Below are positions 21,953 through 42,587 of a stretch of DNA of 46,328 nucleotides, piece after piece; positions within the stretch are counted from its first letter, which is position 1; every line of letters starts with the position of its first letter. The DNA is from Candidatus Nomurabacteria bacterium (GTDB lineage: Bacteria; Patescibacteriota; Minisyncoccia; Phycocordibacterales; UBA9973). Made by a program: the position numbers and the translations under genes. The stretch is taken from positions 1-46,328 of the forward strand of contig JAQBRC010000006.1 in assembly GCA_028286705.1 (NCBI GenBank), written 5' to 3'. The notes under the pieces were generated by a model. That model saw only the letters and a list, made by a program, of their open reading frames with translations. It was not told the origin of the DNA and ran no database searches.

Positions 21953-22741
21953 ATGAAAGCGAAAAAACATCTCGGGCAGCACTTCTTGAAATCACAAAGT
22001 GCGCTTAATAAAATTAATGAGGCCGGCGATATCAAGACTAACGATATCGTACTTGAGGTGGGACCGGGAATGGGAGCACTAACGGAAATACTATTAGCAT
22101 CCGCAGGGAAGGTTATCGCCATCGAAAAAGATCGCGACATGATCCCAGTATTGGAAGAAGCATTTGCCAAGGAAATTGATGCGGGGGTATTCGAGCTAAT
22201 TGAACAGGATATTTTAAAGTTTGATCCTGTAACTCTTCCTTTCTATGGAAAGCAGGAGTATAAGGTAGTGGCAAACATTCCATACTATATAACTGGCGCT
22301 ATCATCGAAAAGTTTTTGAGTACTCCATTCCAGCCAACAAGAATGGTTGTATTGATTCAAAAGGAAGTTGCGGAACGTATCCTAGCTCGAGACAAGAAGG
22401 AAAGCATTCTTTCTATAGCGGTTAAGGCCTATGGCATACCAAAAATTATTGCAAAGGTTCCTCCCGGAGCATTTGTGCCCCCACCAACAGTTGATTCAGC
22501 AATACTCTCTATAGAAGACATTAATAGAGACTTCTTTGCAAACCTAGATGAAGCACTATTCTTCAGGGTATTGAAGGGTGTATTCGGGAAAAAGAGAAAG
22601 CAGATAGGAGGGAGTCTGTCTGAAGTTATAGAAAACAAGGAAAAAGCATTGAACGCATTGGAAAAAAGCGGTATTGATGCAAAAACAAGACCAGAAGACA
22701 TTGCTCTTGCGACATGGAAGACCCTGGTGCAGGCTCTCTAG
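21953..22741 (+). CDS. rsmA: 16S rRNA (adenine1518/1519-N6)-dimethyltransferase
   Basis: HLGQHFL start, SAM-binding VLEVGPGMGALT, and NIPYYIT, all characteristic of KsgA/RsmA. Confidence 0.93.
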   Translation: MKAKKHLGQHFLKSQSALNKINEAGDIKTNDIVLEVGPGMGALTEILLASAGKVIAIEKDRDMIPVLEEAFAKEIDAGVFELIEQDILKFDPVTLPFYGKQEYKVVANIPYYITGAIIEKFLSTPFQPTRMVVLIQKEVAERILARDKKESILSIAVKAYGIPKIIAKVPPGAFVPPPTVDSAILSIEDINRDFFANLDEALFFRVLKGVFGKKRKQIGGSLSEVIENKEKALNALEKSGIDAKTRPEDIALATWKTLVQAL

Positions 22742-27267: not shown

Positions 27268-27297
27268 AAAAGTAGCGCTCCGTGATACAATGTACGA

Positions 27298-30200: not shown

Positions 30201-30831
30201 AGAATATGGTGAAGATTTGCGTAAGAATTCATTCTGGCTTAAGGACGGTAAGCCTCGATATGATCAAGCAGCTCTTGTTGCAGAAGGCGGTGTAATTGGT
30301 GGCGCAGCTGGTGCCGCAGCAATGGCGAGTCTGCTACCAGGAATTACTATTGCTATAGGCACAATGTTAGGGGTGAGCGGAGGAGTTATCGACAACAGAT
30401 TTGGTGATATCAACAGCAAGGCAACAAAGGCTATGGTTGATTCGTTTAAGAAGACACAAGGAAAGGGGAACAAGGAAACAAGGTTGGCTGGAGAAATTGA
30501 TGCAATCAATGATCAGATCAAGCAGGCAGCAGAAGCGCATGGCACGGTTCCTAGTGGCGGGGTAGACAGCTGGTCGGAAGAAGATGTAGAAACAGCAATC
30601 GCAGGACATACATATATCCTTCAACAAGAAAAAGAAGCTCTACACAGAGAAGCATCCGCTAGGGGCGTATCGGAGGAAGTTAAGAGAGCAAAAACTATCG
30701 AGGCACAATTGAAACAGAAGAAGATTGATAAGTTGAATAAGGCTATGGAAGAAAAGCGCAGAATTCAAAATGAGCTAGACAAGATAAAAACTGCAGCAGA
30801 TAATGCAAAGAAGGATGAACCTAAAAAATAA
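27298..30831 (+). CDS. Giant polytopic membrane protein, VirB6/TrbL-like by architecture and context (1177 aa)
   Basis: GTG start. About 290 aa of extracytoplasmic N-domain, at least 7 central TM helices (for example LYGCVAYLAYGIYVLVAWVAGILG, IFFIIIMVWTGFSAVF, VVCIVAAIIMGFAGVIFFKVAFLFIARVVGLYICMIF), then about 500 aa of K/E/A-rich coiled-coil tail. Positioned upstream of the PrgI-like and VirB4 genes, as in Gram-positive T4SS loci. Confidence 0.6.
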   Translation: MSARLFRRIKSSFSRLNKTFFFSVALGLVVVFFSVSHVLADAATDYRYYLKNFTTSNDGKLTSGIGGGTVAAASKNGTGGDGLVFVANLGVDTSSPHINASVNEPDSIALHWGRVAHINEAFVIKVCQNGTTQCYLNTVAYTNNRADPGVQAFSETDTDGNIADKQALPVVAFTKTDPRNTGNIYGYDATNKTVSTSNGITFGNGSSLTATFWYCAVKGTGDPAPQDYLKANPSATDAAVFGNLCGGSTYFQIGGPLSITIPLNANAINQQVTQSSQTVAAGSSASSSDNSNIPTCGVTSGTKLYGCVAYLAYGIYVLVAWVAGILGSLFDFFLGYSVSDASYRYGFAVNGWKLVRDISNIFFIIIMVWTGFSAVFDTSKSGSMRKIVPALIINALLINFSLFATRVVIDISNITARMFYSQMVVCDKVNIDTNTGKCDPLQARRGPGGYWPLSEKIISSFNPQQLFKTATLQPTTAPSNTSTTNSSQPGFLPGATAGTAGTSEVDYVNYFMVVCIVAAIIMGFAGVIFFKVAFLFIARVVGLYICMIFSPFAFLSRDIPMLGKIKQLRWEDWLGDLTNYALMAPVFTFFLYVIFTVISSDFAQQIGYMDSSGTFMGTVLSIVIPMALIYFLLDAAKSAATKLSGSVGQKIQGFGEQITGMAAGTALGLATGGAGFLGRNVVGRAAKSFGEGKTGRQIEIDGKMVDETRAMSIASRSATSWSARQKNKLLRATQVGSFNVGNAGVNIGGKDYKLNDTIGRSLGLMGVKTNNLLKNADYVGDDAGKGGIVAVDKKRTEERQKELENRIQFDHLSDDEAKATWEAHKRNAALKNAEGNWKNNDNIDKEDGVKETAELLKTATEKEVALSKENADLEQKLATATAAGSTAEIAALTASKTAKEKEVSDNQTRKNALTTTIETERKNKITELEKGKYMESEAYKAAEKTERERLDKFGKIKNGKMLTAAMRSEYGEDLRKNSFWLKDGKPRYDQAALVAEGGVIGGAAGAAAMASLLPGITIAIGTMLGVSGGVIDNRFGDINSKATKAMVDSFKKTQGKGNKETRLAGEIDAINDQIKQAAEAHGTVPSGGVDSWSEEDVETAIAGHTYILQQEKEALHREASARGVSEEVKRAKTIEAQLKQKKIDKLNKAMEEKRRIQNELDKIKTAADNAKKDEPKK

Positions 30832-30833
30832 CT

Positions 30834-31439
30834 ATGGAATCAACACCTAAAACAACAGAAGAATTATGGGCAGAAGATGGGCTGAAGAACGTACCGAGTG
30901 AAGTAGTAGACTTTATGACAAGTCCTTTGTATGAAGTAATCATTAGTGCTGCTCAGCAGGCTCTTTCTCTGACTGCAGAACAAAAGAATTGGATGAGGCT
31001 GCTCTCATATGAATTACTTATGACCACCATAACTGAGAAGGGGGCCTACCAATTCTTGATTGACCATAGTGTGTCAGCAGAAACTGCTATTAAAATACTC
31101 TATGTAATTGACACCGAAATCCTCACGCGTGCAGAAAATATTACAGAATTCTTTACTGACGATTCTGAGGTAACAGATGAAGAGGTTGCTAGCTATGCAG
31201 CACCAAAGCCAGTTAACTTCGCACCGACAAGTCTGCAATCTCTGGCAGACCGACTCAAACAACCTTCATTTTCTGCTAACACATCTCACAGTTATATTCC
31301 TGCACAGGGAACAGTACCAGCAAATCTTCCTGTTACCGAACTGATTCTCACTCCAGATACAGCAGCGGATGCGCCAGTTGCTCCGGCATCAAATCCTATA
31401 AAAACTATCGACCCGTATCACGAACCAATAGAAAAATAA
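30834..31439 (+). CDS. Acidic cytoplasmic protein (201 aa, unknown function) within the T4SS-like locus
   Basis: No TM helix or signal peptide. Its ATG is 2 nt after the VirB6-like stop, within an 18-nt junction sequence that recurs at 31872-31889. Confidence 0.6.
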   Translation: MESTPKTTEELWAEDGLKNVPSEVVDFMTSPLYEVIISAAQQALSLTAEQKNWMRLLSYELLMTTITEKGAYQFLIDHSVSAETAIKILYVIDTEILTRAENITEFFTDDSEVTDEEVASYAAPKPVNFAPTSLQSLADRLKQPSFSANTSHSYIPAQGTVPANLPVTELILTPDTAADAPVAPASNPIKTIDPYHEPIEK

Positions 31440-31463
31440 TATCTGCTATACTTGTAGCAGCAT

Positions 31464-31883
31464 ATGCAGTTCAAGGTCCCACAATTTATTGATATTGAAG
31501 ACAAAGTCTTTGGACCGCTTACCTTCAAACAGTTCGCATACCTTGCAGGGGGAGCGGGCCTTGGCTATTTGGCGTTTCGTTTCTTGCCGACAATTATTGC
31601 GATTGTTGTGGGGCCATTGCTGGTAGCGTTCGCATTAGCGTTGGCATTTATGAAATACAACGACAAGCCGTTTGTTAACGTAGTTGAATCATTTATTCGA
31701 TACTATTCACATTCTCGACTATACCTTTGGCACAAGCAGCCATCTGGAAATGTTACAACCGCTCGTCCTCGAGACGATATGCCTCAGCTCATCGCCCATA
31801 CAGGACAAGGCCGTGATACAATGAACGAGAGTAAGCTGAAGACACTTTCATGGAGTGTTGATGTCATTGACCCTAAAAAATAA
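31464..31883 (+). CDS. PrgI-family (VirB3-like) small membrane protein
   Basis: The N-terminus MQFKVPQFIDIEDKVFGPLTFKQFAYLAGGAGLGYLAF followed by two TM helices matches the remembered PrgI-family pattern. It sits immediately upstream of VirB4, as expected for this family. Confidence 0.7.
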   Translation: MQFKVPQFIDIEDKVFGPLTFKQFAYLAGGAGLGYLAFRFLPTIIAIVVGPLLVAFALALAFMKYNDKPFVNVVESFIRYYSHSRLYLWHKQPSGNVTTARPRDDMPQLIAHTGQGRDTMNESKLKTLSWSVDVIDPKK

Positions 31884-31885
31884 CT

Positions 31886-32521
31886 ATGGCCACTATCGGA
31901 ACACCCGCCCAACAATTTATTCCCGTCCAGGACGTTCGTGACGGCATTGTCGTATTGAAAGACGGCACCCTTTGCACCATTGTATTGGTTTCTTCCGTCA
32001 ACCTTAGCCTAAAGTCATACGACGAACAGCGCGCAACACTGTCTCAGTTCCAGAACTTTTTAAATACTCTTGATTTTCCAGTACAGATTGTCGTTCAGTC
32101 TCGTAAATATGATGTTCGTCCTTATATTTTAACGCTAGAAAACCGTCTGAAAGAGCAGACAGAGCAGCTGTTGCAGGTACAGACTCGCGAATATATCCAG
32201 TTTATCCAAACTTTTACCGACCAAGTGAACGTTATGCGCAAGTCTTTTTTTGTAGTTATTCCGTATGTTCCAGCAGTATTGAAACAAAGTTCTGGCATTG
32301 GAAAATTCTTTTCGTTCCTACGAAGTACTCCTAAGTCTGATTCTGGAGTTATCAGCGACTTTGAGGAAGAGCGTACGCAGCTTGAGCAACGCGTTAGCGT
32401 TGTTGAACAGGGACTATCAAGCGTTGGTCTTCGACTGGTGCAGCTTGGTACGCAGGAGGTGATTGAAGTGCTGTATAAGACCTTCAACCCTGGAGAAACC
32501 ACCAGCCAATCTAACGCCTAG
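31886..32521 (+). CDS. VirB4 N-terminal segment encoded as a separate 211-aa ORF
   Basis: QQFIPVQDVRDGIVVLKDGTLCTIVLVSSVNLSLKSYDEQRATLSQFQNFLNTLDFPVQIVVQS resembles the extreme N-terminus of Gram-positive VirB4-type ATPases (Tn916 Orf16/TcpF/PrgJ class), which are normally about 800-aa single polypeptides. Confidence 0.6.
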   Translation: MATIGTPAQQFIPVQDVRDGIVVLKDGTLCTIVLVSSVNLSLKSYDEQRATLSQFQNFLNTLDFPVQIVVQSRKYDVRPYILTLENRLKEQTEQLLQVQTREYIQFIQTFTDQVNVMRKSFFVVIPYVPAVLKQSSGIGKFFSFLRSTPKSDSGVISDFEEERTQLEQRVSVVEQGLSSVGLRLVQLGTQEVIEVLYKTFNPGETTSQSNA

Positions 32522-32546
32522 CGATAAACTGAGGTATACTGTATCC

Positions 32547-34334
32547 ATGAAAGACAACGGAGGGCTTCTACCAATCTCCTCATCACAAGTTCACGAATGG
32601 GAAACAATGGAACTAGCAGACAAGATTGCTCCTTCTGCTATTGAAATCACTTCCAAGTCCATGCGTATCGGCGATAAGATCGTTCGTACCTTCTTTGTTA
32701 TTTCTTATCCTCGATACCTTACCGACAATTGGCTGACTCCAATTATCAATCTTGATAAGATTTTTGATATTGCCATCTATGTTAACCCTATTGAAACAGC
32801 AGAATTGCTGAAGCATTTCCAGAAGAAGATTGCCGAAGTGGAGAGTCAGATCATCGTTCGCCAGCAAAAGGGATTAGTTCGCGACCCAATGCTTGATACT
32901 GCGAGAGAAGACTTGGAAGAGCTTCGTGACAACCTGACACAGGCACAGGAAAAGATGTTTGACCTTGGCATGTACATCACCATCTACGCTGACAACGAAA
33001 CAGACTTGTTCCGCACTGAAAGTGAAATCAAGTCACTGCTTGAGTCAAAGCTTATTTATATGAAGCCAACGCTCTTTCAAGAAGAGGATGGGTTCAAGAC
33101 TGTTGCCCCACTTGGTACAGACAAACTCAATGTCACACAAAAGCTTAACTCTGAGCCTATTTCTAGTATGTTTCCATTCGTTTCATTCGACCTTACAAGC
33201 GAAACAGGAATCTTGTACGGTGTTAACCGACACAACTCTAGTCTTGTTATCTTTGATCGTTTCAGTCTTGAAAACTATAACTCTATTATCTTTGCCAAGT
33301 CTGGTGCCGGAAAGAGTTACGCGACAAAGTTGGAAATCATTCGTACGTTGATGTTTGATACAGACGTTATCGTTATTGACCCTGAACGAGAATACGAATA
33401 TCTCGCAGAAGCTATTGGCGGACGTTATTTTAATATTTCATTGTCTTCAGAACACCACATTAATCCGTTTGACCTTCCTATTCCTCGTGAAGACGAGTCA
33501 GCAGCAGATGTGTTGCGCAGCAACATCATCAACCTTGTTGGGTTGTTCCGTATCATGCTTGGAGGGTTAAGTCCTGAGGAAGACTCAATCATTGACCGTG
33601 CCATTACAGAAACCTATTCTCTTAAAGACATTAGTGCCGAGTCAGACTTTAGCAGCATTGAACCACCATTGCTGTCAGACTTTGAAATGGTATTGTCAGG
33701 GATGGAGGGAACTGACTCTGTCTTGCAGCGTCTCACTAAATATACCCATGGCTCATGGTCTAACTTTATCAACCAGCCAACAAACGTTGATATCAACAAG
33801 AAGTTCGTTGTCTTTTCAGTGCGAGACATGGAAGACGACCTTAAGCCTGCTGCTATGTATATAGTGACGCACTTTATTTGGAATGCTGTCCGCAAGGAAC
33901 TGAAGAAGCGCCTATTGGTTGTTGACGAGGCATGGTGGATGATGAAGTCAGAAGACACAGCAAGCTTCCTATACTCCATCGCAAAGCGAGGACGTAAGTA
34001 TTATTTGGGCCTTTGTACCATTACTCAAGACGTTGGGGACTTCATGAAGAGCCCATATGGTGTGCCAATTATCACCAACTCTTCTATCCAGCTATTGCTG
34101 AAGCAATCTCCATCAACTATGGATGTCTTGCAAAAGACCTTTAACCTGACTGACGAGGAGAAGTATCTATTGTTGGAGTCTGGGGTAGGGGAAGGAATCT
34201 TCTTTGCCGGACTGAAGCATGTGGCTATCAAGATCATCGCTTCCTATACAGAAGACCAAATCATCACCTCTGACCCTTCACAGGTTATTTCTATCAAGAA
34301 AGCCAAACAGGAATTCTCCGAACAGAGAGCGTAA
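32547..34334 (+). CDS. virB4: VirB4-type T4SS ATPase (C-terminal 595 aa including the P-loop domain)
   Basis: Walker A is FAKSGAGKSYATK and Walker B is LLVVDEAWWMM. The upstream VirB4 middle region is KIAPSAIEI...RTFFVISYPRYLTDNWL. The ATG at 32547 is chosen over the track's 32463, which overlaps the previous ORF in another frame. Confidence 0.85.
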   Translation: MKDNGGLLPISSSQVHEWETMELADKIAPSAIEITSKSMRIGDKIVRTFFVISYPRYLTDNWLTPIINLDKIFDIAIYVNPIETAELLKHFQKKIAEVESQIIVRQQKGLVRDPMLDTAREDLEELRDNLTQAQEKMFDLGMYITIYADNETDLFRTESEIKSLLESKLIYMKPTLFQEEDGFKTVAPLGTDKLNVTQKLNSEPISSMFPFVSFDLTSETGILYGVNRHNSSLVIFDRFSLENYNSIIFAKSGAGKSYATKLEIIRTLMFDTDVIVIDPEREYEYLAEAIGGRYFNISLSSEHHINPFDLPIPREDESAADVLRSNIINLVGLFRIMLGGLSPEEDSIIDRAITETYSLKDISAESDFSSIEPPLLSDFEMVLSGMEGTDSVLQRLTKYTHGSWSNFINQPTNVDINKKFVVFSVRDMEDDLKPAAMYIVTHFIWNAVRKELKKRLLVVDEAWWMMKSEDTASFLYSIAKRGRKYYLGLCTITQDVGDFMKSPYGVPIITNSSIQLLLKQSPSTMDVLQKTFNLTDEEKYLLLESGVGEGIFFAGLKHVAIKIIASYTEDQIITSDPSQVISIKKAKQEFSEQRA

Positions 34335-34361
34335 AGCACTGCTGTTTGCTATACTTATAGC

Positions 34362-35327: not shown

Positions 35328-35348
35328 GATTCGTGATAAACTAAAGGT

Positions 35349-37085: not shown

Positions 37086-37097
37086 TACAATACTGAT

Positions 37098-41489: not shown

Positions 41490-42587
41490 ATGAATATAAC
41501 ATGTACAACAGAAAAGTTGAAAAACGCAGTCAGTCTTGCAGAAAGAATGACAGGGAAGGCATTAACATTACCGACACTGCATGCAATCCTTTTGATTGCA
41601 TCAGGTAACTCAATTAAGATTCGCTCGACTAACCTTAACCTTGGTATTGAGATAGAAATTCCTGCAACTGTTGAAGAAGAAGGACAGGTATTGATTAAGG
41701 GAGAAATTCTGGCGAATGTCTGCAATCATCTTAGTGACGCTAGTGAAGTACGCCTCACACTTGATCACGATAATTTAACTATTCAAACACCTCAACACAC
41801 GACAGTTATCAAGTCATTGCCGGCTGATGATTTTCCAACACTCCCTATCGTAGAAGGGGAACAGATTGAGCTTAAGACTAGTGTGCTTCAGGAAGGTATA
41901 CGTTCCGTATACTTCTGTGCAGCTATAACAGATATTAAGCCTGAAATTGCTAGTATCTTTATGTACAGTGAAGGAAGTAACCTTTGTTTTGTAGCGACAG
42001 ACTCGTTTCGTCTAGCTGAAAAGAAAATTCAAGTTAAGGGCATTCCTGAAATTTCTAAGATTCTCATACCTTTCAAGAATATTGCTGACATTCTTCGAGT
42101 GCTCGATGCTGCCCCTGACACTATACGTATTACATACAGCCGCAATCAGATAGCCTTTTATGCCAACGGACTATATCTAACCTCTCGTTTGATTGATGGA
42201 GGTTTTCCCCCATATCAGCTTATTATCCCCAAAGAGACACTTACCAAAGTTGTTCTGTTAAAACAGGAACTGCTTAATACTCTTCGTCTCTCAACAATAT
42301 TTGCTGACAAGTTCTTCCAAGTGTCATTTGCCATTCCTGAGGATATGAAGAACATTACCCTTAGCTCAAAGAACAGTGACGTTGGCTCCTCAGTGTCGAT
42401 TGTAGATGCTGCAGTTGAAGGTGCGGCCATTGAGGTGGATTTCAACCTAAAGTACTTCCTTGATGTATTTCAGGCCCTTACAGGGGATAGTGTATCTATT
42501 TCCTTCACTCAACCTAACAAGCCTATTGTTGTTAAGAGTGTCAGTGACAATTCCTTCCTTTATCTACTGATGCCAACCAATCGCTAA
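41490..42587 (+). CDS. dnaN: DNA polymerase III beta subunit (sliding clamp)
   Basis: 365 aa in the canonical position after dnaA. Typical clamp strings (ATDSFRLAE, LIDGGFPPYQLIIP, YLLMP) are present. Confidence 0.93.
   Translation: MNITCTTEKLKNAVSLAERMTGKALTLPTLHAILLIASGNSIKIRSTNLNLGIEIEIPATVEEEGQVLIKGEILANVCNHLSDASEVRLTLDHDNLTIQTPQHTTVIKSLPADDFPTLPIVEGEQIELKTSVLQEGIRSVYFCAAITDIKPEIASIFMYSEGSNLCFVATDSFRLAEKKIQVKGIPEISKILIPFKNIADILRVLDAAPDTIRITYSRNQIAFYANGLYLTSRLIDGGFPPYQLIIPKETLTKVVLLKQELLNTLRLSTIFADKFFQVSFAIPEDMKNITLSSKNSDVGSSVSIVDAAVEGAAIEVDFNLKYFLDVFQALTGDSVSISFTQPNKPIVVKSVSDNSFLYLLMPTNR

Follow-up and report, generated by a model that had tools for sequence, protein, structure and literature searches.

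Two adjacent genes, trsD-like and virB4, together cover a VirB4 ATPase in the chromosomal type IV secretion locus of a Nomurabacteria genome

Introduction

Why should a bacterium carry what looks like one VirB4 ATPase in two pieces? In a 46,328-nucleotide stretch of DNA from a Candidatus Nomurabacteria bacterium (contig JAQBRC010000006.1 of assembly GCA_028286705.1; we call this whole stretch the window), a cluster of type IV secretion system (T4SS) genes contains two consecutive open reading frames (ORFs) in different frames, ORF1 of 211 amino acids (aa) and ORF2 of 595 aa, which resemble the beginning and the remainder of a VirB4 protein. The first-pass annotation of this DNA left three explanations open: a genuine split into two subunits, a frameshifted pseudogene or sequencing error, or recoding. 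We found that the first of these stands and that the other two fall, and we consider it nearly certain that the window holds two separate, co-oriented genes, trsD-like (ORF1) and virB4 (ORF2), of a chromosomal T4SS in a Patescibacteria (Nomurabacteria/Paceibacteria) genome.

VirB4 touches VirB3 through its N-terminal part, which also fastens the ATPase to the complex in the inner membrane, as seen by cryo-electron microscopy of the R388 machine (PDB 7O41-7O43, 8RTB/8RTD).

A two-gene arrangement of TrsD and VirB4 is already published for the T4SS found in nearly all of the ultra-small Patescibacteria. According to Quinonero-Coronel et al. (2025, Microb Genom, PMC12102498), TrsD is a remote homologue of the N-terminal portion of VirB4 that adjoins virB4 across Patescibacteria, and it outnumbers every other T4SS component of the phylum, with 2,272 homologues found and 1,664 of them near virB4; outside Patescibacteria, TrsD is reported only from conjugation systems of monoderms, namely their pGO1-type subclass. 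The same paper describes PrgI/VirB3 as usually adjacent and the Paceibacteria locus as lying near dnaA, dnaN and ksgA, lists the TrsD homologue of Southlakia epibionticum as essential (from Wang et al. 2023, PMC10633639), and cites Guglielmini et al. 2014 (PMC4027160) for TrsD/TraD and TrsE/TraE (VirB4) of the pGO1-type MPF-FATA subclass. Wang et al. 2023 (PMC10633639) showed that epibiotic growth requires this T4SS cluster.

Results

ORF1 and ORF2 match successive parts of single-chain VirB4

The two ORFs are as first described: the ORF listing reproduced their coordinates, their lengths and the +1 frame of ORF2 relative to ORF1, with 25 nt from the TAG stop of ORF1 to the ATG of ORF2. The ORF2 frame is open on the + strand from a TTG at 32463 to 34334 (623 aa), and it therefore begins within ORF1. 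We found that the products of both ORFs align to profiles of full-length VirB4 and that their matches are contiguous and do not overlap. On NF045975 (894 positions), ORF1 residues 11-209 fall on positions 107-284 (E 7e-12) and ORF2 residues 21-573 fall on positions 293-893 (E 4e-77), which settles in favour of homology the earlier concern that ORF1 might prove unrelated to the VirB4 N-domain. On NF045971 (VirB4-like, CD1110 family, 752 positions), ORF1 residues 8-120 fall on positions 1-114 and ORF2 residues 14-560 on positions 179-733, and ORF2 scores 386.2 bits as compared to a curated cut-off of 325 (E 3.1e-115). ORF2 belongs to the CD1110 family by score and has the Walker A and Walker B motifs; the N-terminal ~180 profile positions of that family are absent from the ATPase polypeptide, and positions 1-114 are matched by the separate ORF1 instead. 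Pfam places P-loop_TraG (E 6.7e-26), AAA_10 and DUF87 on ORF2. The ORF2 product is an N-terminally short VirB4-like ATPase that consists of the second part of the N-domain and the RecA-like ATPase domain, and ORF1 is a stand-alone, P-loop-free homologue of the VirB4 N-terminus, about 200 aa long, beside it.

To place ORF1 with respect to TrsD, we used the NCBIfam profile for stand-alone TrsD/TraD, NF041427, as a proxy for the MPF-FATA TrsD profile (CONJScan/MacSyFinder) of PMC12102498. ORF1 residues 17-125 align to positions 24-142 of the 201 positions of NF041427 (E 5.8e-7), and by profile score ORF1 is a distant TrsD/TraD relative, with significant homology but not a member by the NCBI threshold. 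We also generated an AlphaFold2 model of ORF1 from 41 homologues (mean pLDDT 73) and used it for a Foldseek search of the PDB, in which the top 14 matches are all TrwK/VirB4 chains of R388 (E 2e-3 to 5e-2, probability 0.90-1.00). The match of the predicted fold to TrwK/VirB4 is modest but specific, and the fold search is the only link from ORF1 to solved VirB4 structures.

A relative in the same class, genome G136, carries both parts in one chain. Directly after its PrgI gene lies a single-chain VirB4 of 796 aa (L116:1222-3612, G136:C5), and ORF1 residues 2-202 align to residues 6-202 of this fused protein (35% identity, E 3e-40), while ORF2 residues 24-579 align to residues 224-779 (53% identity). 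From these alignments, the break between ORF1 and ORF2 corresponds to a poorly conserved linker of ~20 residues. The profile matches, the fused relative and the fold search all bear out the original assignment of ORF1 to the N-terminal segment of VirB4 and of ORF2 to the remainder with the P-loop.

We considered whether ORF1 could be a second, duplicated VirB4 N-domain that lies beside a complete VirB4, as might be proposed because ORF2 keeps ~240 residues ahead of Walker A. However, ORF2 aligns only from position 179 of 752 in NF045971 and from position 293 of 894 in NF045975, and the earlier positions are covered by ORF1 without overlap. The alignments to the fused 796-aa relative are complementary and non-overlapping in the same way, and since they leave ORF2 without a second ORF1 segment, we rejected the duplicated copy as very improbable.

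The split is conserved in close relatives, across the class and across the phylum

The alignment of orthologous loci that had been called for at the outset finds the split at every level of relatedness that we sampled. In close relatives, we found an ORF1 homologue in 39 of 41 genomes, where the full-length matches have open frames of 210-244 aa and three shorter matches are truncated, two of them at contig ends. In the class, 146 of 151 sampled genomes have an ORF1 homologue, and the full-length open frames are 205-270 aa long with one exception of 816 aa. In the phylum, the homologue is present in 239 of 251 sampled genomes, and among the 150 matches listed the open frames are 389 aa or shorter. 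These relatives come from many independent assemblies and studies.

We then scored the junction between the two genes at 117 of 119 loci, which represent 100 distinct ORF1 sequences (there are 19 duplicates from overlapping retrievals). At 116 of the 117 junctions the genes are split and at one they are fused. The second gene is in frame 0, +1 or +2 relative to the first at 36, 35 and 46 loci, respectively, and the stop codon of the ORF1 homologue is TAA in 77 cases, TAG in 35 and TGA in 5, with tandem stops at some junctions. The distance from stop to ATG ranges from –4 nt (an ATGA overlap) to 541 nt. Down to ~33% identity, both parts retain open frames and stay conserved. The junction of the closest independent assembly (91% identity) is built as in the window, with a TAG stop, the second gene in the +1 frame and a gap of 25 nt.

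In the window, the two ORFs lie in different frames with a 59-nt overlap of open frame and their lengths sum to that of a normal VirB4, which is what would be expected if a 1-nt indel near 32460-32550 had disrupted a single-chain virB4 of ~810 aa, either in the genome as a frameshift pseudogene or in the assembly as a sequencing error. Against this, a stop separates the two parts at 116 of the 117 related junctions in independent assemblies, across the class and the phylum, and the 91%-identity relative repeats the junction architecture exactly. Further, ORF2 begins at a proper ATG with an upstream box that is conserved genus-wide (see below). Because the split extends through the whole phylum and both parts remain open and conserved, neither a recent pseudogene nor an error in sequencing can explain it, and we give this explanation next to no weight.

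Programmed recoding, in which a +1 frameshift (or, in relatives with both ORFs in one frame, read-through of the stop) would yield a single-chain VirB4, could draw on the 59 nt of open ORF2 frame before the ORF1 stop and on the 36 of 117 loci at which both parts share a frame with one stop between them; it is just as implausible, since a frame relation that is close to random and a gap that reaches half a kilobase, in some loci with inserted cassettes, leave no frameshift or read-through that could be conserved. TAA, the least leaky stop codon, is the commonest stop at these junctions, and the tandem stops likewise speak against read-through. We read the window junction as having no slippery site or structure, in agreement with the earlier remark that the overlap contains no slippery heptamer. 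In other classes, long disordered tails stand on both proteins at the break point: in three loci outside the class of the window (L117, L118 and L119, from genomes G217, G361 and G328), the TrsD homologues have an acidic low-complexity C-terminal tail of ~150 aa and the VirB4 proteins have a low-complexity N-terminal tail of ~100 aa. Such disordered extensions at the break point would be expected if the two proteins have been evolving separately for a long time.

Taken together, these sequence comparisons show that the boundary between ORF1 and ORF2 goes back to an ancient gene fission that selection has maintained throughout the phylum, and that it is neither a lesion nor a recoding site. The fused form is unique to G136 among the 151 class genomes sampled, and because the split is present across the phylum it seems more likely that G136 represents a secondary re-fusion than the ancestral state.

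Some relatives differ in the length of the junction or of the first gene. In one relative from the same taxonomic order, the 541-nt insert between trsD and virB4 (L018:1172-1712, G027:C3) contains an ORF of 119 aa with flanking 45-nt inverted repeats that are 78% complementary, and three others (L008, L020 and L029) have repeat-rich trsD-virB4 spacers of 70-120 nt. At the trsD-virB4 junction of the window, we found no inverted repeat or mobile element. The ORF1 homologues of 374-389 aa in other classes were considered as possible PrgI-TrsD fusions, and this was rejected; they end instead in long C-terminal tails of low complexity.

A –10-like box precedes virB4 in this genus

The spacer between the trsD-like gene and virB4 contains the hexamer TATACT 6 nt before the virB4 ATG. 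We found that a TA[TC]A[AC]T box lies 6-11 nt before the ATG in all of the 59 loci with ORF1 homologues of 66% identity or more, as compared to only 7 of 58 more distant loci, among which most have a tight junction of 1-10 nt. The same spacing is common in the genome as a whole: 61 of 373 TATACT sites (16%) are followed within 5-10 nt by the ATG of an ORF of at least 100 codons, with a mode of 6 nt, and 13% of TATAAT sites lie 5-10 nt before such an ATG, as compared to a mean of 1.8% for permuted hexamers. In the T4SS cluster itself, six of the eleven junctions, each of 12-30 nt, have a –10-like hexamer (TATACT, TACAAT or TAAACT; Table 1), which is located 6 nt before the start codon in five of them and 11 nt before prgI in the sixth.

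From this pattern we infer that the box at 32535 may be an internal –10 promoter that gives a leaderless virB4 mRNA. If the trsD-virB4 spacer is an internal promoter, the ATPase would be made independently of TrsD and PrgI, and probably in excess over them; we regard this as a tentative proposal whose chances are well short of even. Across the genome, the positions of the hexamers suggest that leaderless mRNAs are widespread in this Paceibacteria genome. A search of the literature on leaderless mRNAs in the candidate phyla radiation (CPR) returned nothing specific, and the conserved TATACT box before the virB4 ATG in this genus is possibly undescribed.

The locus resembles published Patescibacteria loci and some Bacillota plasmids

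The trsD-like/virB4 pair lies within a co-directional T4SS cluster (Table 1) in a genome of 0.58 Mb in 44 contigs. The genes for PrgI, the TrsD-like protein and VirB4 are consecutive, so that TrsD and PrgI/VirB3 both adjoin virB4 as described for Patescibacteria, and the cluster is chromosomal and lies near the origin genes dnaA, dnaN and ksgA/rsmA. A place of its VirB4 inside the Patescibacteria clade of the VirB4 phylogeny would be consistent with the presence of ORF1 homologues throughout the phylum, which is not itself a tree. We found that an exact 18-nt string, CCTAAAAAATAACTATGG, is present twice, at 30820-30837 and at 31872-31889, and that both copies are stop-start junctions, one from the 1177-aa (VirB6-like) gene to the 201-aa gene and the other from prgI to trsD. 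In both, a TAA stop is 2 nt before the ATG, and the identity of the two copies is likely due to a shared context of translational coupling.

Table 1. Features of the trsD-like/virB4 locus and of its surroundings in the window.
Feature	Position	Strand	Remarks
PrgI-family (VirB3-like) membrane protein gene, 139 aa	31464..31883	+	Pfam PF12666 PrgI, E 2.6e-11, 44.3 bits vs cut-off 27
trsD-like gene (ORF1), 211 aa	31886..32521	+	ATG start; TAG stop at 32519-32521; no P-loop
Intergenic spacer, 25 nt	32522..32546	+	–10-like box TATACT at 32535-32540
virB4 gene (ORF2), 595 aa	32547..34334	+	ATG at 32547; NCBIfam and Pfam matches
Walker A motif AKSGAGKSY, ORF2 residues 250-258	33294..33320	+	Read from translation
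Walker B motif VVDEAW, ORF2 residues 458-463	33918..33935	+	Read from translation
–10-like hexamers at cluster junctions	27285-27290, 31448-31453, 32535-32540, 34350-34355, 35337-35342, 37086-37091		
1177-aa ORF of the cluster			No Pfam match; the label VirB6-like comes from the first-pass annotation only
201-aa protein of the cluster			Unknown family
321-aa protein after virB4			Only a sub-threshold Ig_3 match
NlpC/P60 hydrolase after virB4			Pfam
RrnaAD (rsmA/ksgA)	21953-22741		Upstream of the T4SS cluster
DnaA	39934-41292		Downstream of the T4SS cluster
DnaN	41490-42587		Downstream of the T4SS cluster

As compared to the Patescibacteria T4SS of PMC12102498, the window shows no substantive difference and is one more genome of that set: in both, a protein of ~200 aa that corresponds to the VirB4 N-terminus is encoded upstream of virB4 with PrgI before it, and the locus sits on the chromosome of a member of the class Paceibacteria with rsmA/ksgA, dnaA and dnaN as neighbours. 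The portions of that paper available to us give TrsD as a separate component and do not describe the N-terminal shortening of VirB4 that complements it, the rare re-fused form or the genus-specific –10 box of the spacer. The pGO1-type TrsD and VirB4 have the same separate small protein for the VirB4 N-terminus; however, that system is plasmid-borne and serves conjugation with a relaxase, whereas the locus in the window is a chromosomal core locus adjacent to the origin. Single-chain VirB4 proteins (NF045971, the Mbov_0397 family NF045975 and TrwK of R388, PDB 7O42/8RTD) have the same domain content and order as ORF1 and ORF2 together, but in the window a polypeptide of its own provides the first ~200 residues.

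The same order of PrgI, hypothetical protein and short VirB4 is also found on two Bacillota megaplasmids, from Pontibacillus sp. (NZ_CP062975.1, L120) and Paenibacillus polymyxa (pSC2, NC_014628.2, L122). In these triads, a 'hypothetical protein' of 274 or 332 aa, which aligns with ORF1 over 95-97% of its length, is followed by a VirB4 of 621-641 aa. They differ from the window in that they are plasmid-borne, the ORF1 homologue is annotated as hypothetical and identity is 26-28%. On a plasmid of Rubrobacter marinus (L121), an ORF1-like segment lies inside an 'ATP-binding protein' of 1,344 aa, and tblastn also returned weak matches on haloarchaeal plasmids (Salinibaculum, Halarchaeum and Halobacterium).

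Discussion

The stop present at 116 of 117 related junctions and the ORF of ~200 aa kept phylum-wide show that the VirB4 of this genome is genuinely split into a trsD-like gene and a virB4 gene. Several observations pull in the other direction and should be set beside this evidence. Pfam assigns no family to ORF1, and on NF041427 ORF1 reaches 29.5 bits and falls short of the curated cut-off of 200. A search of the PDB with a sequence profile of 41 ORF1 homologues gave as its best match a fructosamine kinase at E 0.57, which is not meaningful, and the Foldseek match is modest, with a TM score of 0.35-0.44 on the query, a model pLDDT of 73 and an unspecified aligned region of TrwK. With respect to expression, a scan for consensus sigma-70 –35/–10 promoters did not call the box at 32535, where there is no acceptable –35 element, and the promoter reading of this box draws on the conserved hexamer and the genome-wide enrichment.

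We propose that the TrsD-like protein would bind the VirB4 ATPase non-covalently and that, together with the PrgI/VirB3-like protein, it would dock the ATPase hexamer on the membrane translocon, like the covalent N-domain of single-chain VirB4. By analogy, the detached TrsD-like protein probably does the job of the N-domain in trans, as a bridge between PrgI and the VirB4 hexamer. In this proposal, translation of trsD would be coupled to that of prgI across the 2-nt gap, and in this genus virB4 would probably also be made from a leaderless transcript, with a –10 box of its own 6 nt ahead of the ATG.

The products of the trsD-like gene and of virB4 together amount to one VirB4, and the ATPase motifs are intact. 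Patescibacteria loci with TrsD and VirB4 should not be flagged as a frameshifted or pseudogenised virB4, and the upstream 'hypothetical protein' is better called TrsD-like (VirB4 N-terminal segment). Set side by side, the fused relative and the fission found across the phylum are a clean natural test of which VirB4 segment can function in trans. If TrsD is sub-stoichiometric, only some VirB4 subunits would be docked at the membrane, which would recall the two layers, inner and outer, that VirB4 forms in the R388 machine. If the leaderless reading is true, much of the gene expression in this Paceibacteria lineage would proceed by leaderless translation.

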